Positions 3,001 through 61,270 of a DNA stretch of 64,000 nucleotides are shown here, piece by piece. The notes under the pieces are model-generated. The model made no database searches. It worked only from the letters and a program-made list of their open reading frames with translations, and was not told the origin of the DNA. Origin of the DNA: Chthoniobacterales bacterium (GTDB lineage Bacteria > Verrucomicrobiota > Verrucomicrobiia > Chthoniobacterales > UBA6821); NCBI GenBank assembly GCA_019747735.1, contig JAIEQL010000014.1, forward strand, positions 73,013 to 137,012, written 5' to 3'. Every line of letters begins with the position of its first letter. Position 1 is the stretch's first letter. Position numbers and translations under genes: made by a program.

Positions 3001-5648
3001 CGGCTCAAAAAAAAGGAGGAACAGCCCTCACTGGCGCTCTAGAAAAACTAAAAGCCTTTGATGAAGCTGTCCTAACACGCTGGCATCAACTTCAAAGCCC
3101 CAAAGCAATTGATACTCCAGAAGAAGACTACCTCAATCAACTCAGCCTCACTCTTAATAAAAAAGGAGAAGAGATTTTTAAAACAGCCGTGACGTGTGAA
3201 CTAGGAATTAAAAAATATAAACAACTTACCAAACAAGAAGCACTCCGAGCCGCAAGAGAAAACACTCCAAAAGCAGCCGAGGCTTGGAAAGAACGCATTC
3301 GAGACAACCAAGAAAAAATAGAGACATGGGAAAAGAAATGTGCTGATGACATAACTTCCAAACAAGAAACCTCAGAAACAAGAAACATTCGAGACCTTCT
3401 CCCACAACTACGAGGAATCCTGGAAGCCGATCAAAAAGCTCAATCACTTTTTGAAGAAGAAGAAAGACGCCTCAGCCGCATTGAGAAAATTTGGAAAAGC
3501 ATCCAAGAGGCAAAAGAAAAAGCAACCTTCCAAAAAGCCCAAGAGGCCGCTCTACGCTACCATCAAGGAGATCGAAGGTCCTGGGAAGAAGAACTGACCG
3601 AAGAAGAACGCCAGGCTTACAACAACCACCTCGATAAAAAAAATCAATCGTATGACCAAAAACTAGCTAATGAAGAGAGAGAGCTAGAACAAACCCGTCA
3701 AATCCTCGAAGAGAAACAGCAAAAAACAGAACGATTTCTTTCTCGTCTTGTAGGAGGAATTACAGGGCAACAGCAGGCAACACTAGATGCCATCAGGGAG
3801 GCACAAGAACATTATGATAGAGGCTATCAACAATGGGCTGAACAAAAAGAAGAACTCCAATGGGGAAGTTTTGAAACAGCGGAAGAATATCAAAAAGCAA
3901 TAGCTCAAAAACGTCAGGAAATTACTACACGAGAGAAAAGAAAAAACGAAAAAATATTTTTAAACGTTGTTAGCTCTGTGTTAGCAGAAGGTGCTCCACT
4001 GTTTGCAGAAGAAGGGACATTTGTTCGAGCTGCATATGATAATGCGGTCAAGTATTGGAACAATTCTGCTCAAAGGAGGTTGTCTGGAAAAACGGGGAGC
4101 TGGTTTTGGACAGTAGCAGCCTTTAACAATCTTAATAATAGACTCAAGGGAAAAGAGGGAGTCTCTGCAGCGTATCAACAAAATCTTGTTAAGTACATTT
4201 TGGACCTGGTCATTGCTTATGAAAAAGCTGCCAAGCAAGAGAAAGCTGCTCAATTCCAGATAGCAGATTCTTATCACAAAGCAATTTTTTCGTACTATGG
4301 AGCAATCGAAAACGAAAGAGAGGCCTTTGTCTCATCAGAAGAGGGAGAGAACGAGTTAGCACAGTATGAAAGACAGCTTTCCTCTTATCAAAATAGTCTG
4401 GGAGATGTCTATTTCCAAATGGCCAGACAAGCAGCGAAAAATCCGCAACACGTTGAAAACTACCGTCAAGCCATCCCTTTTTATAAGCAAGCAATAGAGA
4501 ATGAAGAGGCTGCGATAACTTCATTTCAAGCAGGAGAGAAGAAGCTAGCAGAGCATCAAGAAGCTCTTTCTGTGTTACAACAGGCTCTTGGAGAGACTTA
4601 TTGGCTTGCAGCACGTGAAGAAGCAACAGGAAATCTGTATCACGCAGAAAATTATCGCCCAGCCATTTTTTTATATGAGCAAGCAATAGAGAGTTACAAA
4701 GCTGCGATAGTCTTCTTTCATGCGGGGGAGAAAGAACTAGCAAAGTATCAAAAAGATCTTTCTGATTCTCAACGTAAGGTGGGATCTGAATATTTCACTG
4801 CAGCATTTCTAGGAGCAGGAGATAATATGCAGAATGCAAAAAACACTCTTAAAGAGATCCCTCGTCTTGAACAGTTGGTGGAAAATCGAAAGCAACTTGT
4901 CAATTATCAACATAATCTAAGAAATGCCAATTGCTCTGCAATCGAGCAAGAAGCAGCAGGGAAGCCTCAGTTTGCAGTTGGTTATCGCCAAGCGGTTCCT
5001 TTTTTTACACAAGCAATAGAGAGCACAAAAGCTGCCATAGACTCATCCTACGGGAATGAAAGCAAAAGAGAACTAGCAGAGTATCAAGGATTGCTTTCTA
5101 CTTGTTATAACTATGAGGGATGTAGCCATCATTGGAATGTTTATTATCAAGTTAAAGAAAAACCTCCACTAGCTTCTTTAGCCTTAGAGATAGGTTCTTT
5201 TTCTAAGAATGCTGTCACCAATCAAGAGGCTGTTTTAGCTTTTTGGAGTCAGGCTGAATTAGCTGCTCCTTGGGATCGAGGAAAGCTGCGAGCATTGGCA
5301 TCTATACAACAAGAGAAGACACTCTTTATTTTACTCAAGGTAAATACATGGCGCTGGGAAATAGTTCGCCAAGATCAGAGTGAGACAAAAGTTCCTGATT
5401 CTAGAAAAGAAGAAGAGGCAAGATTAAGTGAAGTTGTCGCTCTTTATGATCAGCTTTTTTCTGCTTACCAAAAAGCACCTTGGGAGCTTTCTACCAAAGA
5501 GAGGGAACGAACCACATTATTGAGTAAAGCCTGGAAAACTTATAATGAGGCCATAGAGCGTCTTGGTGAAAACAGAACAGAGGAAGCTCTGCAATTAAAG
5601 CGCGAGGTTGAAGAATACCTCCGAGCTGTTCTACTGAATTATCCTTAA
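1..5648 (+). CDS. giant secreted K/E/Q/W-rich alpha-helical repeat protein, paralog 1 (5' end cut by window edge)
   Basis: The open frame continues upstream of the listed Met: nt 3-17 read LLVAP before MRVSAMM, matching the signal-peptide ends of the ORFs at 37445..40300 and 40539..44312. Shares their N-terminal module. No recognisable catalytic domain. Confidence 0.8.
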   Translation, partial: LLVAPMRVSAMMEADKKKERKESGGSKETLKKNTDEKWSEAHEKTAERVNNPAANNNTETEGEMFIEKKEIIEGEALQSFPNADARLNLSESHADEESDDNSLLNIATLEQRIQEAREIIADLGGKGTAISEEELCDLFKKWSERNERYQRELQSSDLEHRNDIGLIAKQQIEDRLTELVQASGKAVEALQQSLENFTRNNATRAGNPSCLKDSQRWFIEKKTAPVAEAVLDEQQQPYFLECLARVVTRASLKEDPHYALAEVLWDEREQAWEKHHEYYKLKQQKKNALIIAQEKAKQALEVDEKRDETQLGQFKQKLEQVAQALHYVPEPHTQLLATGMDTAASAVDWINFIWTKHRLHQVRADENEAIKAHQKAKEAAKGATINITGNQPEETEKRLLEQEKETTKQLANGLRPQAGWGEHAWESWSNRLLGDLSYDEKRDFIRQGQESQKSRGWIVEQSATAWKDRQNESKKQLELLTRENKKVIASLETAHHRLEKNLQEKVKKSENQRDLFQEAHAKAIKYKKRIETFLEEYSQEQSKEWNQRKIDQAQETFRSDFNNLIDNYRWIGKHEASWNESLELQGQAILEAKKTSQKHESTFKKYQRLLHRAERQLENDQEQLRQVWPEYDTTFRPYLAWELPFHEETISASIPVKTTFKKSGIIEPPVIPKEEREVKGRHLLYQFQRAIEKELNFSLIAPLGLQEEGEQISPSKTETISSSKSDIKSETSEERTLSPYEALLVWSREQVNKPSIADRQRWKARKQFEEAHQETRKLFRLLEERKNYLVEEQGASRTLKGEFNKSDKGNASAENLKLTPEALASHAKQYRLVTQKEDKPLAEVATNASWRTKFTEKTRSFFSRFTTSTGTVFENRSLTVASIELQIQQALPIEKKAEERWLTLMNHAEVARSAREKNSLGTPKQIEKIWAEADHAALKKQQEAEGLLQEKREADAMQTHWDESNLRWRALAEEIQAGKEGRAPALLWDHYAQQQASILTAQKKGGTALTGALEKLKAFDEAVLTRWHQLQSPKAIDTPEEDYLNQLSLTLNKKGEEIFKTAVTCELGIKKYKQLTKQEALRAARENTPKAAEAWKERIRDNQEKIETWEKKCADDITSKQETSETRNIRDLLPQLRGILEADQKAQSLFEEEERRLSRIEKIWKSIQEAKEKATFQKAQEAALRYHQGDRRSWEEELTEEERQAYNNHLDKKNQSYDQKLANEERELEQTRQILEEKQQKTERFLSRLVGGITGQQQATLDAIREAQEHYDRGYQQWAEQKEELQWGSFETAEEYQKAIAQKRQEITTREKRKNEKIFLNVVSSVLAEGAPLFAEEGTFVRAAYDNAVKYWNNSAQRRLSGKTGSWFWTVAAFNNLNNRLKGKEGVSAAYQQNLVKYILDLVIAYEKAAKQEKAAQFQIADSYHKAIFSYYGAIENEREAFVSSEEGENELAQYERQLSSYQNSLGDVYFQMARQAAKNPQHVENYRQAIPFYKQAIENEEAAITSFQAGEKKLAEHQEALSVLQQALGETYWLAAREEATGNLYHAENYRPAIFLYEQAIESYKAAIVFFHAGEKELAKYQKDLSDSQRKVGSEYFTAAFLGAGDNMQNAKNTLKEIPRLEQLVENRKQLVNYQHNLRNANCSAIEQEAAGKPQFAVGYRQAVPFFTQAIESTKAAIDSSYGNESKRELAEYQGLLSTCYNYEGCSHHWNVYYQVKEKPPLASLALEIGSFSKNAVTNQEAVLAFWSQAELAAPWDRGKLRALASIQQEKTLFILLKVNTWRWEIVRQDQSETKVPDSRKEEEARLSEVVALYDQLFSAYQKAPWELSTKERERTTLLSKAWKTYNEAIERLGENRTEEALQLKREVEEYLRAVLLNYP

Positions 5649-24532: not shown

Positions 24533-24623
24533 GATGGAGAGTTTAGGAAGTTAAAAGCTTTAGAAAAAAAGGAAGACCTCGAATTAAGAAAGGTGCAAAC
24601 ATTGTGTCGCTATAAGGAGTAAA

Positions 24624-24763
24624 GAGTCTAATTCAAATGCGCTGCTGAGGATGCAGGACAAGGAACGAGGAGCACAGACCCGCAGTGTATATGGAAATAC
24701 TCGAGGAGGCGAGCACCGAAGTGACGCAGTCCTGCGCCTTAGCAGTAGCATTTGGATAGACTC
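24624..24763 (+). repeat. family A palindromic element, copy A1 (own arm type)
   Basis: Arms gagtctaattcaaatgcgctgctg / cagcagtagcatttggatagactc flank a core that is about 59/69 identical to A2 by hand alignment. Its right end overlaps the ahcY stop codon. Confidence 0.8.
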
Positions 24764-26178
24764 TAGTACCGATAATGCTCCGGCTTATAAGGTCCTTCGA
24801 CCGACACACCCAGATAAGTAGCTTGTTCAGCAGTTAAACGGGTAAGTTTCACTCCAATTTTTTCTAAATGAAGACGAGCAACTTCTTCGTCCAATTTTTT
24901 TGGCAAAACATGAACGATCGGCTGATAGCTTTCACGATTTTTCCAAAGCTCTATCTGAGCCAACACCTGGTTGCTAAAGCTGTTGCTCATCACAAAGCTC
25001 GGATGTCCTGTAGCACAACCAAGATTGACAAGACGACCTTCCGCAAGAAGAAAAATTTCATGTCCCTGTGGAAAGGTGAATTTATCAACCTGTGGCTTAA
25101 TAGTTGTTCTCTCAATTCCAGGAAAAGCGAGTAATTGATCGACTTCAATCTCGTTATCAAAATGCCCAATGTTGCAGACAATAGCTTGGTCTTTCATTTT
25201 TTTCATATGCTCCAGCGTGATGACGCCGACATTTCCGGTTGTGGTCACATAGATATCACCACGGGCCAAAGTCTCTTCGATTGTTGTTACCTCATACCCT
25301 TCCATGGCTGCTTGGAGAGCGTTAATCGGATCAATCTCGGTTATGATCACACGAGCTCCCTGCCCACGTAATGATTGAGCACATCCTTTTCCGACATCGC
25401 CATAGCCACAGATGACAGCAACCTTTCCAGAAATCATCACATCCATTGCACGGTTGAGCGCATCCACAAGGGAGTGACGGCATCCGTAGAGATTATCAAA
25501 TTTACTTTTGGTAACAGAGTCATTGACGTTGAACGCTGGAACCAAAAGTTTTCCTTGTTCCTGGAGTTTGTAGAGGCGGTGAACGCCAGTGGTTGTTTCC
25601 TCAGAAACACCCTTCCAATCTTTGGCAATTTCATGCCAACGCCGTGGGTTTTCTGCATAAATTTTTTTCAAAAGATCTTTGATTACCTGTTCTTCATGGT
25701 TGCTGGAAGGGCTATCCACCCATTTGTCCCCCTCCTCCAGCTCATATCCTTTATGAAGCAAAAGGGTAACATCACCGCCATCATCAACTACGAGCTCTGG
25801 TCCTTGACCACTTGCATGAGAAACAGCCTGATAAGTGCACCACCAATATTCTTCAAGGCTTTCGCCTTTCCAAGCAAAGACAGGAACTCCTGTCACCGCA
25901 ATGGCTGCTGCTGCATGATCTTGCGTAGAAAAAATATTACAGCTTGCCCAACGAACGCTGGCACCAAGTTCTGTCAGCGTTTCAATCAAGACTGCTGTTT
26001 GGACGGTCATGTGAAGAGAGCCCGTAATGCGCACGCCAGCAAGCGGTTTTTCTTGAGCATACTTTTTTCGAATACTCATGAGGCCCGGCATTTCTTGCTC
26101 GGCAATGAGAATTTCTTTACGTCCCCATTCGGCAAGGGAAAGGTCGGCTACTTTATAATCAATATTCTTGTTCATCAT
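24763..26178 (-). CDS. ahcY: adenosylhomocysteinase
   Basis: 471 aa; [18 protein letters not shown]-binding GYGDVGKG and C-terminal PYKPEHYRY. Confidence 0.95.
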
Positions 26179-29942: not shown

Positions 29943-30045
29943 CTTTTTCCTTAAGACTGTGTTCTCATCCTTCAGGTTCTCTTTGGATAGCCTAGAGGGT
30001 GTCTTGAAAATGAATAAAATGGCTGTAGTTTTATTTAAAATGCTC
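29943..30045. repeat. mosaic of short repeat modules W-Z-X-Y with no core
   Basis: W ctttttccttaagac recurs reverse-complemented at 61381. Z ctcatccttcagRttMtctttggatagcc recurs at 61336. X gagggtgtcttgaaaatgaataaaat is the A2/A4 left arm. Y ggctgtagttttatttaaaatgctc recurs at 44783-44808. Confidence 0.75.
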
Positions 30046-31363
30046 TAATGAATTCCAATGCCTCTTCTTTCGTCGTGATGAGGTTTTCTAACTGTGCATC
30101 CTTCACCCTTGTTAAAATTTTTCCAAACTTTGGCCCTGGTTGCATTCCTAAATCAATCAAATCTTGCCCGGTAACAAGCGGTGTTGGAATGAGTGGGGTC
30201 GCAGCAAACTCTTCTTTTTTCTGCTGAAGCAATTCGTAGTTATCCAGCATTCCATGGCTCGAGGCACAATCGACACGATGGAGTTCGAGCTCCTCTTCAA
30301 AGGTAGGTCGGGCCATCATGCGACGCAATGTTGAGAGGCGCATCTGAGTCACATCTTTAAAACTCATATGCAAGCGCACAGAAGGTACCACCCTGTCGAT
30401 GAGATCATTTGAAAAGCGAAGCCGCTGCAAGAGTCGTTGTGCCATGGTCGCTCCAAGTTGGTCATGCCCATAAAAGCTCATCTTTCCTGCCTCATTGACC
30501 TTACGCGTAGCAGGCTTGCCTATGTCATGAAAAAGAACAGAAAGAACCAGCGACAGCGAAACTTTTTTTGGAAGCATACTCAACATGAGGCGTGTATGAA
30601 CAAAGACATCTCCCTCAGGATGAAATTGGGGTGGTTGCTCACATCCCTTGAGATTTTCTATCTCTGGAAGAATTTTTTTTAACAATCCACTTTGATCGAG
30701 AAGATCAAAGCCGCGGAGACGTTGAGGACTTAAGAAAATTTTTTGTAGTTCATCTCGAATACGTTCAGCACTGACACAAAGAATCTCTGGAGCCATCTGG
30801 CAAAGAGCTTTCCAGGTCATTGGCTCTATTTTAAAATCGAGTGTTGTTGCAAAGCGAATGGCACGAAGGAGTCTCAATTTGTCTTCTTGAAAGCGCTTCA
30901 AAGGATTGCCAATAGCACAAATAATTTTTTGATCTAGATCCTCACGCCCATGCACATAATCAAAAACAGTTTTTGTAATCGGATCATAAAACAAGCCATT
31001 GATCGTGAAATCACGCCTCTTGGCATCTTCCTCTGCATTGGTAAAAGTAACTTCGGCAGGGTGGCGTCCATCCTGGTAGGTTCCATCATGGCGAAAGGTT
31101 GCCACTTGAATTTCCACCTCTTTTTTTTCCTCACTTTTTTCTAAAACAATCACGACTCCAAACTGTGCTCCCACTGGGATAGTGCGTGGAAAAAGTTTTT
31201 CAATTTCCTCAGGAAGCGCATTGGTCGCGATGTCGTAGTCATGTGGCTCCAATCCAAGAAGATGATCACGGACACACCCTCCTGCAAAGAAGGCTTCATG
31301 ACCAACTTCACGCAATTTTTTAAGAACATTGTAGGCAGCAGAAAAAACAGAAGAGCTATTCAC
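30035..31363 (-). CDS. cca: CCA-adding tRNA nucleotidyltransferase with HD domain
   Basis: GG.VRD..LG....D.D, RD.T.N and HD domain (FHDIGKP) motifs. Apparent GTG start. The last codons (..RAF*) lie inside repeat module Y. Confidence 0.88.
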   Translation of the reverse strand: MNSSSVFSAAYNVLKKLREVGHEAFFAGGCVRDHLLGLEPHDYDIATNALPEEIEKLFPRTIPVGAQFGVVIVLEKSEEKKEVEIQVATFRHDGTYQDGRHPAEVTFTNAEEDAKRRDFTINGLFYDPITKTVFDYVHGREDLDQKIICAIGNPLKRFQEDKLRLLRAIRFATTLDFKIEPMTWKALCQMAPEILCVSAERIRDELQKIFLSPQRLRGFDLLDQSGLLKKILPEIENLKGCEQPPQFHPEGDVFVHTRLMLSMLPKKVSLSLVLSVLFHDIGKPATRKVNEAGKMSFYGHDQLGATMAQRLLQRLRFSNDLIDRVVPSVRLHMSFKDVTQMRLSTLRRMMARPTFEEELELHRVDCASSHGMLDNYELLQQKKEEFAATPLIPTPLVTGQDLIDLGMQPGPKFGKILTRVKDAQLENLITTKEEALEFIRAF

Positions 31364-33514: not shown

Positions 33515-34375
33515 ATGAACACCTCAACTGAAAACCATGACTCTAGCTTACAACGCTACATGCAAGATATAGCTCAATATCCCCTGCTCTCTCTAGAAAG
33601 AGAAAACGAGTTGGCAGCACTCATTAAAACTGGAGATAAAAAAGCCATTGCCGAAATGGTACGTTGTAATTTGCGTCTTGTAGTTAAAATTGCACGTGAA
33701 TATGCCAATTTTGGGGTGCCACTGCTTGACCTTATTTCTGAGGGAAACATTGGGCTTATGAAAGCAGTCAAACGTTTTGATCCTTCCAAAGGCAGCAAGC
33801 TGAGCACCTATTCTTCTTGGTGGATTAAGCAGGCCATCAAACGGGCCTTGGCCAATCAAGGTAAAACAGTGCGGCTTCCTATTCACCTTTTGGAAAAAGT
33901 TGCCAAAGTCCGCCGTGTTAATGACAGCTTGAATGAGTTTCTAGGACGTGAAGCAACCCATGAAGAAATTTCAGAAGAGATTGGAATTTCTGTTGAAAAG
34001 ATCGCTCAATTAAAATTAGCCTCTGGTTCCACTACCTCTCTTGATGCTCCTGTAAGCGAAGAAAGCTCCACCAAATTTTCAGACATGTTGAGTGACTCCA
34101 AAGCTCTCAATCCTTTTGATGAACTAGATCAAAAAGATCTCCAAGATTCCCTGCAGGAAATGATTGGAGGACTCACTCTGCGAGAACGTGAAGTCATCAA
34201 TAATCGTTTTGGATTAAACGGGGAAGAGCCCATTACTCTTGAAGAAGTAGGAAGCAAAATGGGCGTCACACGAGAACGTATTCGCCAATTACAAAACGTA
34301 GCTCTTAGCAAAATGCGCCAAGCTTTTCAAAAAAAGGAACAGATTAGATTTTATCCTGAGGTAGTGTTGGCTTAG
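33515..34375 (+). CDS. RNA polymerase sigma-70 family factor (short RpoD/RpoS-like)
   Basis: Region 2 (DLISEGNIGLMKAVKRFD...STYSSWWIKQAI), region 3 (VRLPIHLLEK) and region 4.2 (TLEEVG..MGVTRERIRQLQ). The TAG stop is formed at the junction with repeat A2. Confidence 0.9.
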   Translation: MNTSTENHDSSLQRYMQDIAQYPLLSLERENELAALIKTGDKKAIAEMVRCNLRLVVKIAREYANFGVPLLDLISEGNIGLMKAVKRFDPSKGSKLSTYSSWWIKQAIKRALANQGKTVRLPIHLLEKVAKVRRVNDSLNEFLGREATHEEISEEIGISVEKIAQLKLASGSTTSLDAPVSEESSTKFSDMLSDSKALNPFDELDQKDLQDSLQEMIGGLTLREREVINNRFGLNGEEPITLEEVGSKMGVTRERIRQLQNVALSKMRQAFQKKEQIRFYPEVVLA

Positions 34376-34515
34376 AGAGTGTCTTGAAAATGAATAAAAT
34401 TGATGCAGTACCAGGAGCGAAGCGCACAGACCCGCAGTGTATATGGACATACTCGAGGACGCGAGCACTGGAGCGACGCCGTAATGCGCAATTTTAGTCT
34501 TTTCAAGACACCCTC
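34375..34515 (+). repeat. family A palindromic element, copy A2
   Basis: 141 nt with ~38-nt imperfect arms gagagtgtcttgaaaatgaataaaattg... / ...caattttagtcttttcaagacaccctc. TTA lies on both sides (34372-74 and 34516-18). Nearly identical to A4. Confidence 0.88.
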
Positions 34516-36057
34516 TTAACCAGCCTTCGAATATTTGCGAACGGGACCTTTGCTAAAGTTTTTTTTAGCAAAACTTCCGCTCCTCTCCCCGCCTCGCCGA
34601 GCATCACCACGAAGACCTTGACTACCGCGGCCTTCTCTATCTCGACTGCGCCCTCCTCCTTCTCTTCCACCTTTGTAATTTTTGCTACGTGCGAAATGGG
34701 CATCTTCTGAATCACGATCTCGTGAGTTTGTTGATTTTTCTTTAGCTGGAAGTGAGGGAACATCTGAACAAGAGCCTAGCAAGAGCGAGAAAAGAGCTGA
34801 GGAAATATCAGTTGAGTTATGACCTGCTTCTAAAAGGCGATCCATGATAACATCATGCTTTTTAAAAGAAGCAGTTTCGAGCGTCTTAACAAGTTTCGCA
34901 TAAAGTAACTCAGCCCGCTTTCCTTCAACCTCTCCAACTGTAGGAATAACGCCTCGATGAATTTTTGTTTTGGTATAACGCTCAATAAATTGAAGTTTAT
35001 AAATGTCACGACCACTGACAAAAGTTACTGCCATTCCCTTTTTTCCAGCGCGGCCTGTACGACCAATACGATGCACATAATCTTCGGGATCGTAGGGCAA
35101 GTCGTAATTGACAACGAGCTCTAGATTATCGACATCAATACCACGCCCTGCGACATCAGTCGCCACGAGAAATTCGAATTCCGAATTTTTGAATTTGTTC
35201 ATCACTCGCGTGCGCTGCGCCTGTGGAATCCCTCCATGCAAACGATCTGTTGAAAAACCCTGGGCAAGCAATGCATCAGCCAACTCATCGACCATCCGTT
35301 GTGTGTTGCAAAAAATAATACCGAGCTTGTAACCATGAAAATCAATCAAGCGAATGAACGCTTCCGTTTTCATACGCGGTGGAACTTCATAAAACCATTG
35401 CTCTACCGTTGGCACCGTGAGTTCTTTTTGCTCAATTTTCACCATCTGAGGATGGCGTGAAAAACGATTAATCAAGTCGCGAATCGGCTTAGAGAGGGTC
35501 GCTGAAAAGAAAATGGTCTGGCGTTCTTGAGGCGTACTCTCAAGAATTTTTTGAATATCATCACGAAAACCCATATCGAGCATCCGATCAGCTTCATCAA
35601 GAATGACCATTTTCAATTGGTTCAATTTTAGAGTGCCACGCTCTAAGTGATCAATAAGACGTCCTGGCGTTCCAATGACAATTTGAACTCCTTTTTTGAG
35701 TTCGAATAATTGTCGGTCATAGGAAGCACCTCCATAAATAGGAACGCAATGAATAGAGCGTTTAAAAGCAGTCAACTTATAAACTTCGTCTGCTACTTGA
35801 GTTGCCAGCTCGCGTGTGGGACAGAGAATAAGAATTTGCACAGCTGTAATGGCAGGATCAATTTTTTCAATCGCTGGGATGGCATAAGCCGCTGTCTTGC
35901 CAGAACCTGTTTGAGACTGCCCTACCACATCAACACCTGACATCAAAATGGGGATTGCTGCGGTCTGAATCGGGGAAGCTTCCTCAAAACCGAGCTGAGC
36001 TACTGCCTTAATAATTTCTTGGGAGACTCCAAGAGCCTCAAAGGTACGTTTTTCCAT
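34516..36057 (-). CDS. DEAD-box ATP-dependent RNA helicase with an RG-rich C-terminal tail
   Basis: Q motif, GSGKT, DEAD, SAT and HRIGRTGRAG motifs. The tail reads GGREGGGRSRDREGRGSQGLRGDARRGG. Confidence 0.92.
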   Translation of the reverse strand: MEKRTFEALGVSQEIIKAVAQLGFEEASPIQTAAIPILMSGVDVVGQSQTGSGKTAAYAIPAIEKIDPAITAVQILILCPTRELATQVADEVYKLTAFKRSIHCVPIYGGASYDRQLFELKKGVQIVIGTPGRLIDHLERGTLKLNQLKMVILDEADRMLDMGFRDDIQKILESTPQERQTIFFSATLSKPIRDLINRFSRHPQMVKIEQKELTVPTVEQWFYEVPPRMKTEAFIRLIDFHGYKLGIIFCNTQRMVDELADALLAQGFSTDRLHGGIPQAQRTRVMNKFKNSEFEFLVATDVAGRGIDVDNLELVVNYDLPYDPEDYVHRIGRTGRAGKKGMAVTFVSGRDIYKLQFIERYTKTKIHRGVIPTVGEVEGKRAELLYAKLVKTLETASFKKHDVIMDRLLEAGHNSTDISSALFSLLLGSCSDVPSLPAKEKSTNSRDRDSEDAHFARSKNYKGGREGGGRSRDREGRGSQGLRGDARRGGERSGSFAKKNFSKGPVRKYSKAG

Positions 36058-37444: not shown

Positions 37445-40300
37445 TTAAAAAACATCGAGGTGGATATTACCTTCTACCCAAGGATTGATAGCCTTGCGCC
37501 ATTCAAAATTAGATTGACAACCAGTCCATGCAAAGGGAGGTTTTTCTACAATTTTGCCTGATTTTTTATCTTGAACCTGGCGAGAGCCTTTAAATTTATC
37601 TGAAGGAAAGCGATAGCGTCGAAGCCCATCAGCACTTTCTAAGCCATACCAACCATTTGTCTCACCCCAACTATTCGGGCCACGAGGAGATACATTTGAT
37701 TCATAATAATTGGGGCCCACCCATAATTTACCAAGTTCATTAGAAGCCTTGGTTGAAACAGCTGTCTTTTTTGGATATCCATCCATAATTTCAAAGAGAT
37801 TAGGCGTACCTCCTTTGTTTTTAATACGCTCTATAATTGGCTCAGCCCACCTTTTTATAATTTCTTCGGGAGAAAAATGATTAGAAGAAATAAAAACATC
37901 ACTTTCTATTTTTTTTACTACAGAAAAATATTTTTGCATGAGTTCCACTATTTCTCTTTCTTCTAAAGTAATTTCATCATCACTCGGGCGCAGTTTTCTC
38001 TTTATTTCATCAAAAGCATCTATCAATTTTTGAAGAAATTTTGTTGTTGTTAATTTAGGTCTGCTCACTGCAAAGAGTGACATCCTATCGGTTTTAAAAA
38101 TTTCCTCTGTGACTTCATGTTGTTTTTCTATATTAGCTAAAATCACCTCAGCTGAGGGCTGGCCTACTAATTCCCTTAAGGCATTCTCGCATTTTTCAGC
38201 CAATTCCAAGGCCTTAACTAAAGGCTCATTGAATATCTTGTGACGGAGGCAATTTTCAATAAATTCTCTTGCAGCTTCAGGAACAATATCTTCATAGGCA
38301 TTCAGAACAAAAGGATCTTGAGCATTGTTCATTATTTGCTGGAGCTGCTCTAGCGCATCTTTGCAAGCGATAGAATTAGCTAGAGGCAATTCTTCCCTGT
38401 ATGGAGTAAATAATGGTTTGTTGACTCCATCAGGAAAAAATTTATCTCTGAATTGCATTAATTTCTTAGCTAGCTTTTTTTTCTCTTTTTCAAACGCACC
38501 TAGCCCATCGTATTCTTTGATGAGATCACCAATCTTAGCTTTGGCTTTTGTGCTCCTAGTTGCACCGGCAACATCTTCAAAAGACCTTTTTCTGGAAGCA
38601 AGATATTCTTGATAAACAAAAAATTTCTGAGCCTGTTTTATGCTGCATTCTATTTCACTACGCTTTAGTATTATCTCTTGTTCTGTTGACTCTAAATCGT
38701 GCTGCATCAACCCAACTTCTTCGCTATTACCATCGTTCTGATCTGCTATTAATTTTTTCAGTTGCTCTTCTAACAAAGCTGATCTCTCTTCTAGCCTCTC
38801 TAATTGCTTCGATCCTTCCTCTATGGAGCCTAATTCTTTCTTTAATGTTTCTAAGTTGCCCACATGAGTAGCTGCCTGTTTTATTTCCGATTTATACTCT
38901 TTAGACTCACAATAGTTAAGAAGATCTTGTTTATCCATTTTACCAATTTCTTGAAGTGGCATGATCCTTGGCGACAGCAGCTGTTTAAAAGCACTCAACC
39001 GCTCTTGAGCTTTTCGAGCCATTTCAGGAAAGACTTTATCTCTACACTGAGCCAATTTTTTCTGTTCTTCTTGGCCAACGAGAGTCAGCTCCTTGTATAT
39101 TTTTGTAATCGCAGCAAGTTTTTCCTTTTGCTCTTGTTGATTTTCAGACTTAAGTTTTGAACGCAATGTGCTAAGAGCTTTGCCTCTAGATAAAAGATAT
39201 TTTTGATAGTGAAAAAACAACTTGCCTTCTTTCATGACATCGCTGGTTGCACCCTTGATTTTCTCGCTGATTACTTGTAGCCCTTGATTACCAATGACCT
39301 TCCAGAGCTCATCTAAATTTTTTTTAAATGCTGCTACAAGTTCACGCAGGACAGGCAATTTGATTTTCGTGTACACAAGTTCAAGGAGATCATAACCAGA
39401 GAGATCATTTAGCCGTTCTATTTCTTCAACTGAAAGAGATTTTCCGTTAGCGCAATCTATTGCTCTCATCATGAGATTAAGCTCTTTGGCACTTAATGCG
39501 TTATGCCAAGGTTCCATTAAATTATTTTTTATTTTCTCCTTCCATTCAACAGAAGCAACACATGACAAAAAGCTCTCTCTAATTGCCCTGTTTTCTGCTC
39601 GAGTGTTAGGTGAAAAAACAATTTCCTCTTTAGGTTCAATTCCTTTTTCTGTGATAACTAGTCGTGTTGCTTCTGGGTTTTCATGAAAAGCTTTTTGAAA
39701 ATTAGCTAATAAACTTTTTCGGAGCGCCTCTACTGCATCGCAGGAAGCCTGCACAAGCTCTGTTAGGCGATCTTCAATTTGCTGACCCGCGATTGTTCCA
39801 ATGTTGTTTGCTCGTCCAAGAACATCCGCCTTCTCTTTGTAGCGCTCGTATCGATTGCTCCATTTTTGATAAAGCTCACGGAGTTCTTTTTCTGAAATTG
39901 CAGTCCCCTTTCCTCCTAAATCAGCAATGACCTTTCGAGCCTCTTGGGTTCTTTGTTCCAGGATATCTAGATTCGAAAGATTTTCCTCTTCCAAGAGGTC
40001 CCGGGATCGTGGAACCGCCTCCTTTTTTGGACTTGTAAGAATCTTTCCTTGGCCATCACTTGATTCATTACTTTCGCTCTTGAGGAGCACGTTCTTGACA
40101 GAAGCAGAAGGAACATAACTTGTCCCAACGTTATTGATAAGCCCCCGCTCTTCTTCCTCTTTGCTATATTTTCCAGCCTTTTCAGCCTCTTTACTCTTTG
40201 AGTCTTCGTCGTTTTTTGTTTCTGCTTTCATCATCGCGCTCACGCGCACAGGCGCAAGCACAAGGAGGATTAGGAGTAGCAAGAAGGAAAGTTTTTTCAT
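37445..40300 (-). CDS. giant-family paralog 2: secreted helical protein with a non-helical W/G/P/N-rich C-terminal domain
   Basis: 951 aa. Signal peptide MKKLSFLLLLILLVLAPVRVSAM, the shared N-terminal module, a long K/E/Q-rich helical body, and a last ~120 aa of different composition. Confidence 0.85.
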   Translation of the reverse strand: MKKLSFLLLLILLVLAPVRVSAMMKAETKNDEDSKSKEAEKAGKYSKEEEERGLINNVGTSYVPSASVKNVLLKSESNESSDGQGKILTSPKKEAVPRSRDLLEEENLSNLDILEQRTQEARKVIADLGGKGTAISEKELRELYQKWSNRYERYKEKADVLGRANNIGTIAGQQIEDRLTELVQASCDAVEALRKSLLANFQKAFHENPEATRLVITEKGIEPKEEIVFSPNTRAENRAIRESFLSCVASVEWKEKIKNNLMEPWHNALSAKELNLMMRAIDCANGKSLSVEEIERLNDLSGYDLLELVYTKIKLPVLRELVAAFKKNLDELWKVIGNQGLQVISEKIKGATSDVMKEGKLFFHYQKYLLSRGKALSTLRSKLKSENQQEQKEKLAAITKIYKELTLVGQEEQKKLAQCRDKVFPEMARKAQERLSAFKQLLSPRIMPLQEIGKMDKQDLLNYCESKEYKSEIKQAATHVGNLETLKKELGSIEEGSKQLERLEERSALLEEQLKKLIADQNDGNSEEVGLMQHDLESTEQEIILKRSEIECSIKQAQKFFVYQEYLASRKRSFEDVAGATRSTKAKAKIGDLIKEYDGLGAFEKEKKKLAKKLMQFRDKFFPDGVNKPLFTPYREELPLANSIACKDALEQLQQIMNNAQDPFVLNAYEDIVPEAAREFIENCLRHKIFNEPLVKALELAEKCENALRELVGQPSAEVILANIEKQHEVTEEIFKTDRMSLFAVSRPKLTTTKFLQKLIDAFDEIKRKLRPSDDEITLEEREIVELMQKYFSVVKKIESDVFISSNHFSPEEIIKRWAEPIIERIKNKGGTPNLFEIMDGYPKKTAVSTKASNELGKLWVGPNYYESNVSPRGPNSWGETNGWYGLESADGLRRYRFPSDKFKGSRQVQDKKSGKIVEKPPFAWTGCQSNFEWRKAINPWVEGNIHLDVF

Positions 40301-40388: not shown

Positions 40389-40560
40389 TATAATATAGTC
40401 AAATTACTTAGAAATTACATGAAAGAACGCAGAGATTTTTAGAAAAGGCAAGGCCGAAGAGCGAGCGCTATATCTTATAACGGGAGTAATGAGAACGCAG
40501 TCTTTTCCTGAAAAGATCACGTCAATTTTGTGTAATTTCTAAGTAATTTGACTATTATGA
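40389..40560. repeat. 172-nt palindromic element (family D; arms ataata(ta)gtcaaattacttagaaattaca)
   Basis: Arms of about 30 nt at 40389-40419 and 40531-40560 are complementary apart from a 2-nt indel. The right arm encodes the last ~8 codons and the stop of the 1257-aa ORF. Confidence 0.8.
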
Positions 40561-43500
40561 GTTAATTTTTTTTCTGCCTTAGAAGAAAGCTCTCGTGCTT
40601 TTTTTTCAGCGGCTTCTGCTTTAAGATTGTGTTGTTTCTTATCCGCTTTGGAATATTGCTTTGCAGCTTGCTCCTTTTCCGTTGCAGCTACGATCGATTG
40701 CTCAAGAGCATCAGTCGCCAAACGTGTTGCTTCTAGCAGATTTGCTTTTTGCTGCTCATTTCCCGAAGCAGAAGAGTTCATTGCTTGCACATAATATTGG
40801 CGAGCTTGTTCCAATTGACTTTTTACCTGTTTTGGAAATTCGGAGCCGCTTTGTTTTTTTTCTAGAATTTTTAAAAGGTATTCATCAAGCCTATCGTCGA
40901 GCTCTTCTAAAACAAAAGTGTGATTACTGAAAGGTTCGCCAGCAGTAACATTTTGAACTCTCTCTGTTTTTTTAATGAGCTTGGCAAGGAGTTGTTGAAG
41001 TTCTTTTTTTTGTTCTTCAAACTTCGGTCCTAATTCTTTTTTCTCCTTAGCAGCATTAAGCTCCTCTAGATTATTCTTGAGCATTGCCTCTACTGCTTGT
41101 GCCACTCTATTCCAAAGATGGTAATTTTTTTCATTATCTTCTAAAGTTGCTCTCAAGGCATTCATAAGATAGTCAAATACTGCTTTCTCTCCTGTGCGTA
41201 AACTTTGTAAAGCAGCCTCACCTTTTTGATTCCATTTTTGTTGTTTTTTGCCACCTGTCTTAAAATCAGGCTGAGCTTGAAGGTCTCTTTCTATCTGATT
41301 GACCCGATCACTGATCTTTTTCCAAGCATTAAATGATAAAGCTTGAGCTAATTGAGGATGAATTGCTAGTTTCTTCAACTGAGCAATTCTCTGGCATTGA
41401 TTAGGGTCATTAGTTTTAAAAAACAAAAGTGTCAGCGCTGCTTCTTGTTCTTTAATTTCAGCAAGCTCTTTTTTTCCTGCCTCCATCATGGTGGCTGCTT
41501 CCACAAATAAATCGCTAGCAGAATGGAGTGCTTGAGCCTCTTGAAGGGAGGTGTTATTTAATATCCCTTCGTTTCTTTTTTTAGCTGCATCATTAAGATG
41601 TTGAGCAGCTCGTAAATAAAATTTAGAAGCAGTTGGTGTTTCTTTAGCTTCTGCCTTAATAAAGAGGCGAGCAGCATTTTGAAACTCCTCCCCTACTGTG
41701 AGCAGTTGTTTGCGAGTTTCTGGCTTGTCAATGGCATCTTTAATACTCTTTTCAGCAGCTGAGAGAGCCTCTATTGTTTTTTTCCAGTTATTATCGTAAT
41801 AATAAGAACCATAAGAACGGTTAGCACCACTAGCATTTTTTCTCAATAAAGCTCTCTCGAGACAAAGCCCCTGTAGGTGCATTAATAATAACATCTTTTC
41901 ATCATCAAGAGCTTTTTGTTTGAGAGCCTTTTCTCCATATTCAATAGCTTGATCATAATCTTTAAAAAAATCACCTGTAGCATAAGAAAAATTATTCAGA
42001 ATAGCCTCTTTTGCGAGAGCCTGAGCTGTTTGGAAATAAAGATCGTTATAGGAACGTATGGCTTCTTCATCCAAAGGAGTCGAGGATGGCTGAATTTTGG
42101 AAATATAACTTCCTATCTTCTCTAAATAAGGTTTGCTCTCAGTAAAAAAGGGCTCATAAGAGTTCAATTTTTCTTTTTCTTTTTTCAGTTGCTCATCCAT
42201 TTGCCTCAACTCATTCTGATTACTTTCTTCCCAACTTCCCCTTGCTCGACGTTCTGCTAGCTCAAAATAATGTTTGATCGCTTCTTGATAGCTTTTCATT
42301 TTTTCCATCAGCAATGCTGTCACTTCTGGGAAGGTGCCTTTCTCTAACGTAGAAATGAGAGCATTATGATTGATCGCTTTTTGCCAATAATCTGATGCAG
42401 TGTTAATGTGCTTATCAAAAGGCTCATCGTAGCCATAGTAGTAGCGCTCACTAGAAGATAAAGAAGCCTTCTTCATCCTCTCAGTTTTGCTTTTCAAGGC
42501 ATCAATTTTTCCTCGAATAGTACTCTCATCATCATTCTCTATAGCAGCTGCATTCACTAAATGGACAGTAGCATCTTGAAAATAGAAGATCCCTTTTGTC
42601 CATAATTCAGCCAGGTCTGAATGAATTGCCCCGTCAGCTTTCTTTTTAAGGGAAGCGGCATAAGAGGATTGCTCTTTGATTTGAGTCGTTATGTTTTTGG
42701 CTGCTTCTACCAAGGAGTTAGCAATAGAAGAAGCATGAATCTCTCTCTTTCCATTATTTCGTTGAAAATAATCAGCTGCTATTTTCCAGAGAGTTGCTAC
42801 TTGCTGATGTGGTGACTTGGCGGCTTTAGTAAGGCACCAAGCAGCCATAAACTGATCATTCCATTGGTCTAGATTTTCTTTTTTTTCAATATGGTCTGCT
42901 ATTTCAGTCCATAAAGCAGCCAGCCTATCGTCTCTATTTTTCTTAGCTTCTTGAGCTCGAATTCGATAATCTTTAATGAAATCCTCTTGGTTTTTTTCGG
43001 CTTCATGAAATTTACGAACTAAAATAATATTGGGATCCAAGTGCGTTTCAGCCCGATTCTCAACTTGAGATTTCCTGTTTTTCATTACTGTCCAATAGCT
43101 TTTCTCTGTTTTATATCCCATTATTCTTGCTTCTTCTTCCTTTGCAAAAACATAGGCCTGCCACGCAGCGAAAGTACCTAATTTTTTTGTGGTAATATTT
43201 CTCCAAAGATTTGAGAGGTGATGGTGTTGAGCTTGCTCAGCCTCGTTAGCTTTGTCGATGAAGCCTAGATAAAAGCGTGTGTCTTTATAAAATTCCTCGC
43301 CGCTATGATAATAATAATATTCCTTCTGCTTAAGTATATTTTCAATAGCCTCCAACCCTCTAGCAGTAGGAAACAACTCACTGGCAGTTTTAACACATAA
43401 AATCAGATCATTTGCTACGTCATTATTTACTTGAAGTGCTTTTTTACTAAACCCCATTTCTAAGAGATATTCTCTAATCCAGTCTAAAGAATAGTAGTGT

Positions 43501-44312
43501 GCAACAAAGATCTTGAAGGCCTTTTCTGTTAACCATTGCTTTGCTTTTTCATTTTTTTTCGGTTGTGGAGCTTTCAATGAAATCTGCTCTAGAGACTTCA
43601 CAGCAGGAGGTGCAGAAATTTCTTTTCCTGGGCTGAGAAGCTCCTCTGTGTTGATTAAAGTAGAACGCACCGTCTCATCATGAGAAAAACGACTTAAGCT
43701 TTTGGTAATCTCTTCAAGAACCTGGGAAGAGATTGTTACTAGCTCTGCAAGTCTTTCTTCAAGGAGCTGATGCTCGATACCAGTTTTTTCTAAGTTAGAA
43801 AACTCCGCCTGAGCTTGTTGATAGTGCTCACAATGATTAGCCCATGTTTCATAAAGCTCGAGAAGCACTGGTTCTTCAAGTGGAAGCCCTTTTCCTGTTA
43901 ACTGGGCAATCACCTCCTGAGCCTCTTTAGTTTTTTGTTCTAGGACATCTAAATTAAAAAAATTCTCGTTAAAGGGATCAGCTCCATAGTGTTTTACTTT
44001 GGATGCCTCTCCTGCTATTTTACTATCAGTCCCTTGATCCAGGAATTCCGAAGCTGCCTCTCCTATTGATTCCTCGTTAGAGCTACTGCTCTCACCTTCA
44101 CTCTTCCAAAAAGCCTTTGTTGTACCACCGCGGCTTGGTCCAACACTTTGGATAAGGTCCTTCTTTTGTTGCTCCTCGCTGGATTTTAGAATCTCTTTCT
44201 TTTGTGATTTTTCCTGTTTCTGATATTCTCCTCCTCTTTTTATCATCGCGCTCACGCGCAGGGGTGCCAGCACAAGGGCGCTCAAAAGCAAAAGAAGAGG
44301 AAATTTTCTCAC
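40539..44312 (-). CDS. giant-family paralog 3: secreted K/E/Q/W-rich helical protein
   Basis: 1257 aa with an apparent GTG start. Signal peptide (M)RKFPLLLLLSALVLAPLRVSAM and the shared N-terminal module. Recurrent (L/I)W..a...Y/F helix-repeat motifs. Confidence 0.85.
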   Translation of the reverse strand: MRKFPLLLLLSALVLAPLRVSAMIKRGGEYQKQEKSQKKEILKSSEEQQKKDLIQSVGPSRGGTTKAFWKSEGESSSSNEESIGEAASEFLDQGTDSKIAGEASKVKHYGADPFNENFFNLDVLEQKTKEAQEVIAQLTGKGLPLEEPVLLELYETWANHCEHYQQAQAEFSNLEKTGIEHQLLEERLAELVTISSQVLEEITKSLSRFSHDETVRSTLINTEELLSPGKEISAPPAVKSLEQISLKAPQPKKNEKAKQWLTEKAFKIFVAHYYSLDWIREYLLEMGFSKKALQVNNDVANDLILCVKTASELFPTARGLEAIENILKQKEYYYYHSGEEFYKDTRFYLGFIDKANEAEQAQHHHLSNLWRNITTKKLGTFAAWQAYVFAKEEEARIMGYKTEKSYWTVMKNRKSQVENRAETHLDPNIILVRKFHEAEKNQEDFIKDYRIRAQEAKKNRDDRLAALWTEIADHIEKKENLDQWNDQFMAAWCLTKAAKSPHQQVATLWKIAADYFQRNNGKREIHASSIANSLVEAAKNITTQIKEQSSYAASLKKKADGAIHSDLAELWTKGIFYFQDATVHLVNAAAIENDDESTIRGKIDALKSKTERMKKASLSSSERYYYGYDEPFDKHINTASDYWQKAINHNALISTLEKGTFPEVTALLMEKMKSYQEAIKHYFELAERRARGSWEESNQNELRQMDEQLKKEKEKLNSYEPFFTESKPYLEKIGSYISKIQPSSTPLDEEAIRSYNDLYFQTAQALAKEAILNNFSYATGDFFKDYDQAIEYGEKALKQKALDDEKMLLLMHLQGLCLERALLRKNASGANRSYGSYYYDNNWKKTIEALSAAEKSIKDAIDKPETRKQLLTVGEEFQNAARLFIKAEAKETPTASKFYLRAAQHLNDAAKKRNEGILNNTSLQEAQALHSASDLFVEAATMMEAGKKELAEIKEQEAALTLLFFKTNDPNQCQRIAQLKKLAIHPQLAQALSFNAWKKISDRVNQIERDLQAQPDFKTGGKKQQKWNQKGEAALQSLRTGEKAVFDYLMNALRATLEDNEKNYHLWNRVAQAVEAMLKNNLEELNAAKEKKELGPKFEEQKKELQQLLAKLIKKTERVQNVTAGEPFSNHTFVLEELDDRLDEYLLKILEKKQSGSEFPKQVKSQLEQARQYYVQAMNSSASGNEQQKANLLEATRLATDALEQSIVAATEKEQAAKQYSKADKKQHNLKAEAAEKKARELSSKAEKKLTHNSQIT

Positions 44313-44637
44313 TGTTGGTTTTTTAGAGTTGGTTGGATTTTTCTAGAAAATTAGAGCGATAACAAATAGCAAAAATTTACTTCAACTTCAACTTCAACTC
44401 ATCTCTATTTTTCTAGTGAGCATCATGACTTACAACGCTTTTAATAAGATCACTTCTTACAAATCAATCACTAAAATTAACGCATATAGTTAAAAAAGAC
44501 TTTGACAAACACACTGATTAATATCTATTATTTCCTATCTGAGAGTTGAAAAACTCATCCAGTGTAAGACAACATACTTCCCCCCTACCTAGGAAAAACC
44601 AATTCTTGTTCCCCCCAAGAACATCACTATTGGGCTA

Positions 44638-44777
44638 GAGCATATTAAAAAATTCTGTAGCCGCTTCATTGCGTCGTCGCTTCGGTGCTCGCTCCATCGA
44701 GTATTGGCTATACACTCCCTCGCTGTGCGCCTCAGCTCCTGGCACTGCATCGACTACAAAAAATTTTAATGATGCTC
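44638..44777 (-). repeat. family A palindromic element, copy A3 (inverted core, Y-type arms)
   Basis: Arms gagcatattaaaaaattctgtag / ctacaaaaaattttaatgatgctc. The core is the reverse complement of the A2/A4 core with scattered substitutions. TA flanks both ends. Confidence 0.8.
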
Positions 44778-44811
44778 TAAGATGGCTGTAGTTTTATTTA
44801 AAATGCTCTAA

Positions 44812-44952
44812 GAGGGTGTCTTGAAAATGAATAAAATTGATGCAGTATCAGGAGCGAAGCGCACAGACCCGCAGTGTATATGGACATACTCGAGGACGCG
44901 AGCACTGGAGCGACGCCGTAATGCGCAATTTTAGTCTTTTCAAGACACCCTC
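44812..44952 (+). repeat. family A palindromic element, copy A4
   Basis: Differs from A2 at 2 positions by hand comparison. TAA flanks both sides (44809-11 and 44953-55). Preceded by a solo Y arm at 44783-44808. Confidence 0.88.
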
Positions 44953-45010
44953 TAAATGGCTGAATATTTATCCCCACCTTCGCAGGGACAAGCTTGACAG
45001 TTACTCCCTC

Positions 45011-60790: not shown

Positions 60791-60841
60791 AAGGGACTTT
60801 TCTCATTGCACAAGCAAAGGCACCTGCTTACTAATAGTCCC

Positions 60842-61266: not shown

Positions 61267-61270
61267 TAAC

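Follow-up and report, generated by a model that had tools for sequence, protein, structure and literature searches.

Several kinds of small palindromic repeat are known to settle in or against bacterial genes. RPE-1, one of the Rickettsia palindromic elements (RPEs), is about 150 bp long and lies in frame in many Rickettsia housekeeping genes, with no transposase known to move it (PMC10969869). In the verrucomicrobium Opitutus terrae, repetitive extragenic palindromic sequences (REPs) are found within genes and also provide genes with TAG stop codons (PMC3733652). The transposases of insertion sequences (ISs) related to IS5 leave duplications of TWA, AT, C|TNA|G or ANT at their targets, or none (PMC4482050). 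The stretch of DNA considered here, called the window, is 64,000 nucleotides of a Chthoniobacterales bacterium (contig JAIEQL010000014.1, positions 73,013 to 137,012) and contains four copies of a repeat, family A, that is akin to REPs, to RPEs and to MITEs (miniature transposable elements with inverted repeats), although only one of its two classes of arms satisfies the definition of a MITE. I propose, with middling confidence, that family A is mobile DNA: a palindromic, non-autonomous repeat, some 145 bp in length, inhabiting freshwater Verrucomicrobia of the Chthoniobacterales type, moved in trans by a DDE transposase and filtered by selection.

The four copies in the window are A1 (24624..24763, + strand), A2 (34375..34515, +), A3 (44638..44777, -, and thus inverted) and A4 (44812..44952, +), where + is the orientation of A1. 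A covariance model of the family, R1, finds exactly these four, with 100-131 bits each, and no further match: 131 bits for A1 (24621-24767), 112 for A2, 101 for A3 (44634-44780) and 111 for A4. They share a core. An exact 23-mer within it, CACAGACCCGCAGTGTATATGGA, occurs three times in the window and never in shuffles, and over 88 nt beginning with GATGCAG, A1 agrees with A2 at 75 positions and with A3 at 65, while A2 agrees with A3 at 69 and with A4 at 87, which amounts to 74-85% identity between copies with different types of arms. A2 and A4 are very nearly the same element from end to end (139 of 141 nt, arms counted in). Across types, the arms are identical at 18-21 of 33 positions on one side and 13-15 of 25 on the other, about what chance would give, yet each arm is complementary to its own partner. 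Every copy folds into one long hairpin, with a minimum free energy (MFE) of -50.7 to -68.1 kcal/mol on the better strand and z from -5.6 to -8.6 relative to dinucleotide shuffles. The A1 hairpin extends over 24623-24765 (+) if the flanking A and TA are included, and A1 reaches -68.1 kcal/mol on the + strand (z -8.6) and -53.2 on the - strand. An earlier note, made from the letters of the window alone, had drawn attention to these four copies, to arms unrelated to one another yet self-complementary, and to a small central hairpin with a variable loop. All of this stands: its coordinates were right to within 1 nt, and the apical hairpin, GTGTATA-N4-6-ATAC, is present in each copy, its loop varying. 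It had also taken all arms to begin with GAG and end with CTC. That is so within the window, but termini across the wider family also start with AGAC, AGAAC, AAAAC, AAACC or CTAGTGC.

Outside the window, a degenerate pattern drawn from the core identified at least 67 loci in six verrucomicrobial metagenome-assembled genomes (MAGs), JAPLTJ01 contributing 29 and JAIEQF01 27 among the matches listed. The sample consists of the MAG contigs around these elements, on which open reading frames (ORFs) were called by simple rules, and loci are cited below by L-number (e.g. L103). R1 finds 78 full copies when these loci are taken together with the window, and another 11 elsewhere, about 90 altogether, counts that overstate the number of independent events because some copies are orthologous between MAGs. 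In the metagenome from which the window was assembled, words from the core have a depth of about 2400 (2418) as opposed to 19-28 in the flanks, a contrast that implies roughly 100 copies for each genome equivalent. Contigs of that metagenome end inside A1, and laying them on A1 in search of empty alleles yielded only copy number and assembly breaks. The exact core 23-mer has no match in a set of species-representative genomes from which the window's own genome is missing, viral contigs contained no family-A copy, and full-text searches of the literature brought up, apart from the REP survey, no account of a repeat like this one in Verrucomicrobia.

What is conserved in these elements is easiest to describe from the outside in, using A1 coordinates on the + strand. 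Fifty-nine full copies were aligned, the structure was derived from the pairs in each sequence's own MFE fold, and R1 was built on the result. (Consensus structures from RNAalifold and from a Nussinov-type procedure both misfolded the core and were dropped for this reason.) The outer arm, P1a, whose 5' half (24623..24633) pairs with 24755-24765, is the most variable helix of the family (columns 10-20 and 146-156; 0.43-0.53 bits per column), with compensatory changes at 11 of 11 pairs. Next comes a sub-terminal module, P1b and P1c, with its 5' half, AAATGCGCTG, at 24635..24644 (columns 22-31; 1.27-1.34 bits). It pairs as AAATKCGCTG with CAGTAGMATTT, the latter being the conserved module CAGTAGCATTT at 24743..24753. 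This module contains the tetranucleotide GTAG (24745-24748), of which T24746 is engaged in a conserved G.T wobble (pair 28/137, G.U in 45 of 59 copies) and A24747 is bulged (column 138, unpaired in the hand structure). Helix P2 (24645..24650 paired with 24737-24742; columns 32-37 and 127-132) is variable again, at 0.7 bits and with double changes at 5 of 6 pairs. Helix P3 and the core occupy 24652..24736. Within the core are internal loops, more of the G.T wobbles, two positions where purine faces purine and G.A gives way to A.G, and the apical hairpin GTGTAT...ATAC at 24685-24700. Taking the sub-terminal module and P3 together, conservation is 1.1-1.4 bits per column, and in the core it is 1.45-1.71. 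The impression gained from the four window copies, that the core is better conserved than the termini, the reverse of the usual MITE, thus extends to the family. Part of the core's conservation is owed to ascertainment, 22 core positions having sat in the search pattern, but the core is kept too in 13 copies picked up by the covariance model alone, independently of that pattern. Through all this variation, the length of the element is almost constant, 136-150 nt, typically about 145.

The arms change in concert. Double compensatory changes are found in 34 of the 55 modeled pairs, 88.5% of cells are paired (shuffles reach 74%, and sliding the partners leaves 32-43%), and the covariation score is 0.388 (0.136 when shuffled, 0.06-0.10 with slid partners). 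One might well take this as the mark of a structured RNA with a cellular function, whether one in the 3' untranslated region that stabilizes, terminates or regulates the gene upstream, or the product of a small RNA gene, the fold being under selection. Folding z values as low as -8.6 fit that idea, and REP, ERIC and Correia repeats do act on mRNA (PMC3733652). Covariation by itself, however, cannot distinguish DNA from RNA, because any maintained DNA palindrome yields the same signal. The halves of a palindrome may be kept complementary by symmetric protein binding or by templated correction of quasi-palindromes, and either would mimic the covariation of an RNA. Rfam 15 recognizes nothing in the window except RNase P RNA (60840-61268); A1 has no match at E <= 10 and the related loci none at E <= 1. 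Matches of related loci to WsnRNA46 and to miRNA precursors fell below threshold and belong to other long hairpins. The notion of an intrinsic terminator was also rejected, since the T content downstream is just 36-39% and there is no consistent U-tract.

The position of the copies relative to genes has more to say on this question. It was already noticed that the right end of A1 overlaps the end of ahcY, and it does: the stop codon TAG (24763-24765, -) is made of the last C of A1 and the flanking TA, closing an ORF (24763..26178) that encodes adenosylhomocysteinase (TIGR00936, 1.8e-190) with the protein end ...HYRY. A2 lies between two convergent genes and has a stop on each junction, the TAG of a gene for an RpoS/RpoD-type sigma factor on the left (34373-34375) and the TAA of a DEAD-box helicase gene on the right (34516-34518, -). 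A3 and A4 are intergenic. The earlier note did not go on to the general behavior of the family, insertion at stop codons and in frame, nor did it see that there are two classes of arms. Considering all 78 copies, ORFs of at least 80 codons stop within the first bases of the element in 35 cases at the right end and in 4 at the left (p = 3e-7). The abutting stop is TAG or TAA, composed of a flanking TA and the element's first purine. Counting all ORFs that enter an element, there are about 44 at the right end and 9-10 at the left, and between co-directional genes the orientations are split 27:9. That 35 copies begin at a gene's stop codon in a fixed orientation is what one would want of an RNA appended to messages, except that the strand that folds better, on which the conserved G.U pairs lie, runs antisense to the neighboring gene in most copies.

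Other ORFs do not stop. About 15 copies are read through, 9-10 of them by way of the reverse complement and 5 by way of the + strand, and the genes that contain them in frame include ffh, ileS, hom (homoserine dehydrogenase), holA, and those for a thiamine pyrophosphate (TPP) decarboxylase and an NAD(P)H-hydrate repair enzyme. In several of the host proteins, the match to the protein family is split in two by an insert of 48 amino acids, ...NSTSDANCGVAPVLASSSINYTLSRCAPEAPG..., which is frame 2 of the reverse complement. That frame is open in 29 of 59 copies and frames 0 and 1 in 20 and 8, as against 10, 1 and 10 copies for frames 0, 1 and 2 of the + strand. A search with the insert peptide through 5.8 billion proteins returned two short hypothetical proteins only and is uninformative on the number of annotated carriers. 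In this behavior, family A is closest to RPE-1: each is about 150 bp, forms a stable hairpin, exists in tens of copies and is found in frame in unrelated housekeeping genes. Each also lends its hosts a shared peptide, conserved and of about 45-50 amino acids in the RPE-1 type (PMC10969869; PMC3733652). The likeness is functional only. Family A is carried by free-living freshwater Verrucomicrobia, not by obligate intracellular Alphaproteobacteria, and, unlike RPEs, most of its copies abut stop codons in one orientation, its termini are hypervariable around a conserved core, and one class of its arms comes with 3-bp duplications.

Copies come and go. A TPP enzyme of 611 amino acids in L103 has the insert, and its 546-residue orthologue in L100 does not; conversely, a 222-residue protein in L100 has an insert that its 173-residue orthologue in L103 lacks. 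A third site is filled in L104 and empty in L093. An RNA whose fold serves the cell would hardly be expected at orthologous sites that are occupied in one genome and vacant in another, or in frame within some 15 ORFs, those of essential genes included. A cellular function at the level of RNA seems to me quite improbable, and the copies are most likely not RNA genes. Of the structured RNA with a covarying stem that had been suggested beforehand, the covariation is real and strong, and it is the free-standing RNA gene that the in-frame copies, the pattern of presence and absence, the antisense fold and the lack of an Rfam match make unlikely.

These elements behave as mobile DNA. Their ends and the DNA next to them should say something about the enzyme, and here the family divides in two. 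The canonical class, A1 included, has the GTAG module (63 of 78 copies), is associated with genes and biased in orientation, and has 42 ORFs running into its right end. The other class, GAG...CTC, lacks GTAG and is mostly found in ORF-free DNA. It comprises copies with GAGGGTG arms, such as A2 and A4, and copies with GAGCG or GAGCA arms, such as A3, which is of the GAGCA type and has TA at both flanks. Copies of the A2/A4 type end in perfect inverted repeats of 16-20 bp, and the core of A2 lies between terminal inverted repeats of the GAGRGTGTCTTGAAAA type. Terminal inverted repeats are conserved within the GAGGGTG class (A2, A4, L132 and L137, with over 10 further copies in VHCR01 and JAIEQF01) but not across the family. 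Direct repeats of 3 bp flank 10 of 24 copies without GTAG, where shuffles give 2.5 +/- 1.4 (none of 500 reaches 10). They read TTA, TAA, TGA, TCA and once GTA, mostly TNA. By the reading of the junctions on the + strand, A2 has TTA on either side (34372-34374 and 34516-34518) and A4 has TAA (44809-44811 and 44953-44955). It is mainly the GAGGGTG-armed copies that supply perfect 3-bp repeats; six copies with GAGCG or GAGCA arms, A3 among them, have TA on both sides.

Within the IS5 family, the IS1031 group has GAG ends and makes 3-bp duplications. For the GAG-ended class, the natural candidate, given its ends and its duplications of 3 bp (mostly TNA), is a trans-acting IS5/PHIS-type DDE transposase. 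GAG ends with a 3-bp TNA duplication had been brought up beforehand as features of the IS1031 group, and they are borne out in the class without GTAG and not in the canonical class; a uniform duplication for the whole family is ruled out, since duplications are significant in the former only. The A2/A4 copies resemble IS5-family MITEs (IS1031-group-like, with eukaryotic PIF/Harbinger-Tourist analogues) in their GAG...CTC ends, inverted repeats of 16-20 bp, 3-bp target duplications, small size and lack of coding sequence. They differ in that no cognate IS was found; moreover, the canonical class has neither conserved ends nor duplications, and across the family conservation is higher inside the element than at its ends. 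It had been said in advance that arms as conserved as cores within subfamilies, along with no stable RNA, would make these ordinary MITE subfamilies. Arms are indeed conserved within subfamilies, and that expectation is in part realized. In one locus of another Verrucomicrobiia genome, L224, ends of the same class, GAGGGTGTCTTGAAAATGG, and a TTA duplication surround an unrelated interior. The arms of the GAG class are therefore an inverted-repeat module of the transposase type, with the core as passenger or partner. (A further match to the arm pattern, in L203, is a matter of chance and falls inside a coiled-coil ORF of 2367 amino acids.)

I propose that the transposase is encoded elsewhere and mobilizes the elements in trans. 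It would most likely be an IS5/PHIS-type DDE enzyme acting at TA-containing targets, and I extend this to the canonical class with less confidence. Selection would then filter the insertions. In compact genomes, many survivors would sit exactly at a stop codon, where the flanking TA and the first purine of the element make TAG or TAA, and others would lie in frame in tolerant protein loops, usually by way of the reverse complement, a strand on which as many as 29 of 59 copies are open. Copies that put the stronger hairpin on the sense strand, be it in mRNA or in the template of the lagging strand, would be lost. This would explain the bias in orientation, because the + strand folds better by about 7.6 kcal/mol, owing to four conserved G.T wobbles. 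Covariation of the arms would follow from a need to keep the two halves complementary, possibly on account of symmetric protein binding, templated correction of the quasi-palindrome or a folded intermediate. The asymmetric inner module, conserved as it is, together with the core, is the likely surface of recognition.

There is a good deal that this proposal does not sit well with. Canonical copies have 3-bp repeats in 9 of 63 cases, with 5.7 +/- 2.2 expected, and no combination of boundaries makes the excess significant. Their terminal 11 bp are nearly unconserved (0.43-0.53 bits), which is unusual in the substrate of a DDE transposase. Filled and empty sites are too diverged at their junctions to reveal the exact chemistry of insertion. 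A DDE mechanism is neutral with respect to orientation, and so the bias of 35:4 rests wholly on the supposed selective filter. The model also offers no account of why GTAG is conserved, of the bulged A, of the G.T wobbles or of the covariation where purine faces purine (G.A with A.G). And then there is the enzyme itself. The absence of a transposase from the window, remarked on before, was upheld: none was found among about 40 window ORFs tested. In about 545 kb of element-bearing loci, there was no multi-copy DDE ORF and no phmmer match to an IS5 query, a weak test that covered contigs around the elements. Half-copies in L174 and L141 raised the prospect of an IS hidden behind them, and no transposase ORF was found there. 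The only multi-copy families in the loci are ABC ATPases, Rpn-family nucleases and four-helix-bundle proteins.

Beside these multi-copy families, it may be recorded that genes for Rpn-family proteins, PD-(D/E)XK enzymes annotated as recombination-promoting nuclease/putative transposase, are present in 4 of 67 element-bearing loci: L107 (6430-7338; TIGR01784, 7.5e-30) and, assigned by BLAST clustering with the L107 copy, L114, L142 and L146. They lie 2-6 kb from family-A copies and are not flanked by them.

The chief alternative for the canonical class is a different enzyme altogether, and the asymmetry between the strands belongs to the case for it. The + strand is the more stable in 68 of 75 copies, with means of -63.8 and -56.2 kcal/mol (p = 1.5e-11; RNA parameters), and this is so in every class of gene context. 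It folds better because of the four conserved G.T positions. Among the asymmetric features conserved on one strand are G28.T137 (45 of 59), T39.G125 (53 of 59) and G76.T87 (59 of 59). Perhaps, then, canonical copies are hairpin transposons that move as folded single-stranded DNA by the action of a structure-specific enzyme, Y1/HUH of the RAYT (REP-associated tyrosine transposase) or IS200/IS605 kind, or some other. Such an enzyme would read the asymmetric inner hairpin on the + strand (GTAG, bulged A and G.T wobbles), cut at a fixed distance from it and insert the element beside TA(R) without duplication, the orientation being set by the replication fork. Much would fall into place: no duplication in 63 canonical copies, termini that are unconserved but always complementary, a length held to 136-150 nt, asymmetric features kept on one strand, better folding of that strand regardless of the orientation of the gene, and the bias in orientation both at stop codons and between co-directional genes. 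In several subfamilies, moreover, TA after the right end is more consistent than TA before the left, and the verrucomicrobium O. terrae has GTAG-tagged REPs in abundance, linked to RAYTs (PMC3733652).

Against this, no Y1/HUH ORF turned up among 1042 ORFs in the same loci and the window, judged by the lack of a match to an IS200 TnpA query and of a HUH...Y motif, though this test too is weak. Sister copies with the same core do form 3-bp duplications, and elements of the IS200/IS605 kind have two separate end hairpins in place of a single one of whole length. The wobbles themselves tell two stories. Outside the conserved positions, G.T on the + strand exceeds A.C by 78 to 29 in copies antisense to a gene, but the figures are 7 and 11 in sense copies, and private, recent changes are symmetric (11 and 12). 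The variable asymmetry tracks the strand of the host gene, the gene-sense strand bearing the more disruptive mismatches, whereas the conserved asymmetry is intrinsic to the element. An element-wide excess of G.T is consequently no proof that the + strand folds, since it goes with the strand of the gene once the four conserved positions are set aside. Since it flips with the orientation of the gene, the variable part points to selection after insertion and not to the needs of an intermediate. On balance, transposition of canonical copies as folded single strands is a possibility to be taken seriously and somewhat doubtful.

The comparison with REPs cuts both ways. Like REPs and REPINs marked by GTAG, family A is palindromic, has a conserved GTAG, lies downstream of ORFs and supplies TAG stops from its ends, and it has intragenic copies and strand-specific features. 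But a REP measures 20-40 nt, and its stem bears GTAG at the 5' tip. In family A, of about 145 nt, GTAG is internal, 3' of the inner hairpin, partly paired and on the strand antisense to the gene upstream. Its place is some 20 nt into the 3' arm, and the partner arm reads CGC, so that GTAG is on one arm only and the element is not a symmetric REP dimer. Family A falls outside the definition of a REP because of its 145 nt, its internal GTAG and the lack of any RAYT seen.

The attC sites of integrons offer a further comparison. They are imperfect palindromes of 60-140 nt that directly follow an ORF in fixed orientation, their structure is more conserved than their sequence, and extrahelical bases mark the active strand. 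Family A is like them in principle only: an imperfect palindrome after an ORF, fixed in orientation, with wobbles and extrahelical bases. An attC site conserves the outer R boxes and varies in the center, and family A does the reverse. Its copies are dispersed after housekeeping genes and within ORFs, not gathered in cassette arrays, and no integrase was seen. One could go further and suppose that the canonical elements are a new kind of hairpin transposon, whose enzyme would read the core and inner stem on the folded strand, measure about 70 nt outward and cut where the stem ends. The ends would be free to drift so long as they remained paired, and the element would insert by TA(R) without duplication, in fixed orientation and preferentially at a stop codon, the same core being open to capture between inverted repeats of the IS5 type. 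I regard so novel a transposon as unlikely.

The separability of arms and core, which had been surmised from the window, was confirmed by L224, by a chimera in L117 that joins a left half of the TAGAC type to a right half of the GAG type, and by pairs of arms with no core. One such coreless element, at 29995..30045 (+), joins a left arm of the GAGGGTG type to a right arm of the GAGCA type, and the stop codon of the gene for the CCA-adding enzyme (30035-30037, -) lies inside it. Another is an arm fragment, GATGGCTGTAGTTTTATTTAAAATGCTC, at 44781..44808 (+), located between A3 and A4 and between two TAA triplets; it is 97% identical to 30015-30048. All four cases would be expected if the core repeatedly landed in, or recombined with, existing hairpins or the inverted repeats of other MITEs, in which event the arms would be foreign to one another and not diverged homologues. 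To these can be added an 83-nt repeat nested in copies at two positions and an orthologous site occupied by different subfamilies in L129 and L120. Yet within a subfamily, the same arms are found at many unrelated loci, which argues that arms travel with the core. The gradual decay from core to tip, and arms of intermediate form (...TTGGAAATTCGCTG after differing tips of 6-8 nt), fit divergence better, and the internal helix P2 varies as much as the tips do. Modular exchange as the main source of the diversity of the arms is a long shot.

If the elements are indeed mobile DNA, driven in trans by a DDE enzyme and sifted by selection, then in-frame colonization of genes by palindromes, long treated as a peculiarity of Rickettsia, would be widespread in uncultured, free-living freshwater Verrucomicrobia and would reach essential genes such as ffh, ileS and holA. 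The family also offers a natural data set for asking which features of a palindromic repeat a mobilizing enzyme actually reads and by what sifting of insertions selection works in compact genomes, having a conserved core, fast and covarying ends, two insertion behaviors on one core and a 35:4 rule of orientation at stop codons. There are practical matters as well. Such repeats break metagenome assemblies, inflate or split the protein predictions of MAGs, and can be annotated mistakenly as genes for RNA, since covariation on its own does not tell an RNA from a palindrome maintained in DNA.

The window in which the family was encountered belongs to a MAG from a drinking-water metagenome, with a GC content of about 42%. 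Its AhcY is nearest to those of Chthoniobacterales and other Verrucomicrobia, and it is an ordinary chromosomal stretch of housekeeping functions: parB, ahcY, metK, dap genes, argS and RNase P RNA.

Some rearrangements and other repeats were met with along the way. In two MAGs, orthologous flanks enclose copies of different subfamilies, GAGTCT-type in L129 (4883-5031) and CTAGTGC-type in L120 (2592-2740); this is either a recurrent hot spot of insertion at the end of a gene or the replacement of one copy by another. Three near-identical copies of the GAGGGTG type in VHCR01 (L200, L205 and L187) have the right flank TTATAGTGTATTAAA in common and may have been copied along with a composite repeat of greater length, or may have landed in some other repeat, as opposed to arising in three independent events. 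The nested repeat mentioned above, ATACGTGCGGCGTGGCAGCCGCCGGATCGACTGCCGAAGGCAGCCCCGAAGGGGCGAGCCTCGCGGGAGCGAGCGAGTTGCA, is GC-rich, 82-84 nt long and unrelated to family A. It is found near column 56 in L094, L118, L122, L146 and L133 and near column 33 in L119, L126 and L081, and it stands by itself in A-rich DNA in L083, L084, L128 (two copies), L130 and L132. The window has none. By eye, it consists of four short hairpins with GNRA-like loops. It comes in two sequence types, folds with about -40 kcal/mol and has no Rfam match.

The window itself has other repeats. A second MITE, of the classical sort, is at 40395-40555, about 161 bp with perfect terminal inverted repeats of 25 bp, ATAGTCAAATTACTTAGAAATTACA. 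Copies of it in many JAIEQF01 loci are 95-99% identical to each other and 84% identical to that of the window, where the stop codon of an ORF of 1257 amino acids (40539-40541, -) lies inside the right inverted repeat. A 41-nt repeat, AGACTGTGTTCTCATCCTTCAGGTTCTCTTTGGATAGCCTA, occurs at 29954-29994 and 61326-61366 (85% identical), once directly to the left of the coreless element at 29995 and once downstream of the gene for RNase P RNA, at a distance of about 60 nt. There are also three very large ORFs, at 18-5648 (1876 amino acids), 37445-40300 (951) and 40539-44312 (1257). The 951-residue product has no match in Pfam at E <= 1e-8, and that of 1257 residues has none in NCBIfam at E <= 0.001. 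The 5' ends of these two have a stretch of 74 nt in common (40226-40299 and 44238-44311; 72% identical), and within the ORF of 1876 amino acids, at 4429-5046, there are repeats about 190 nt long.

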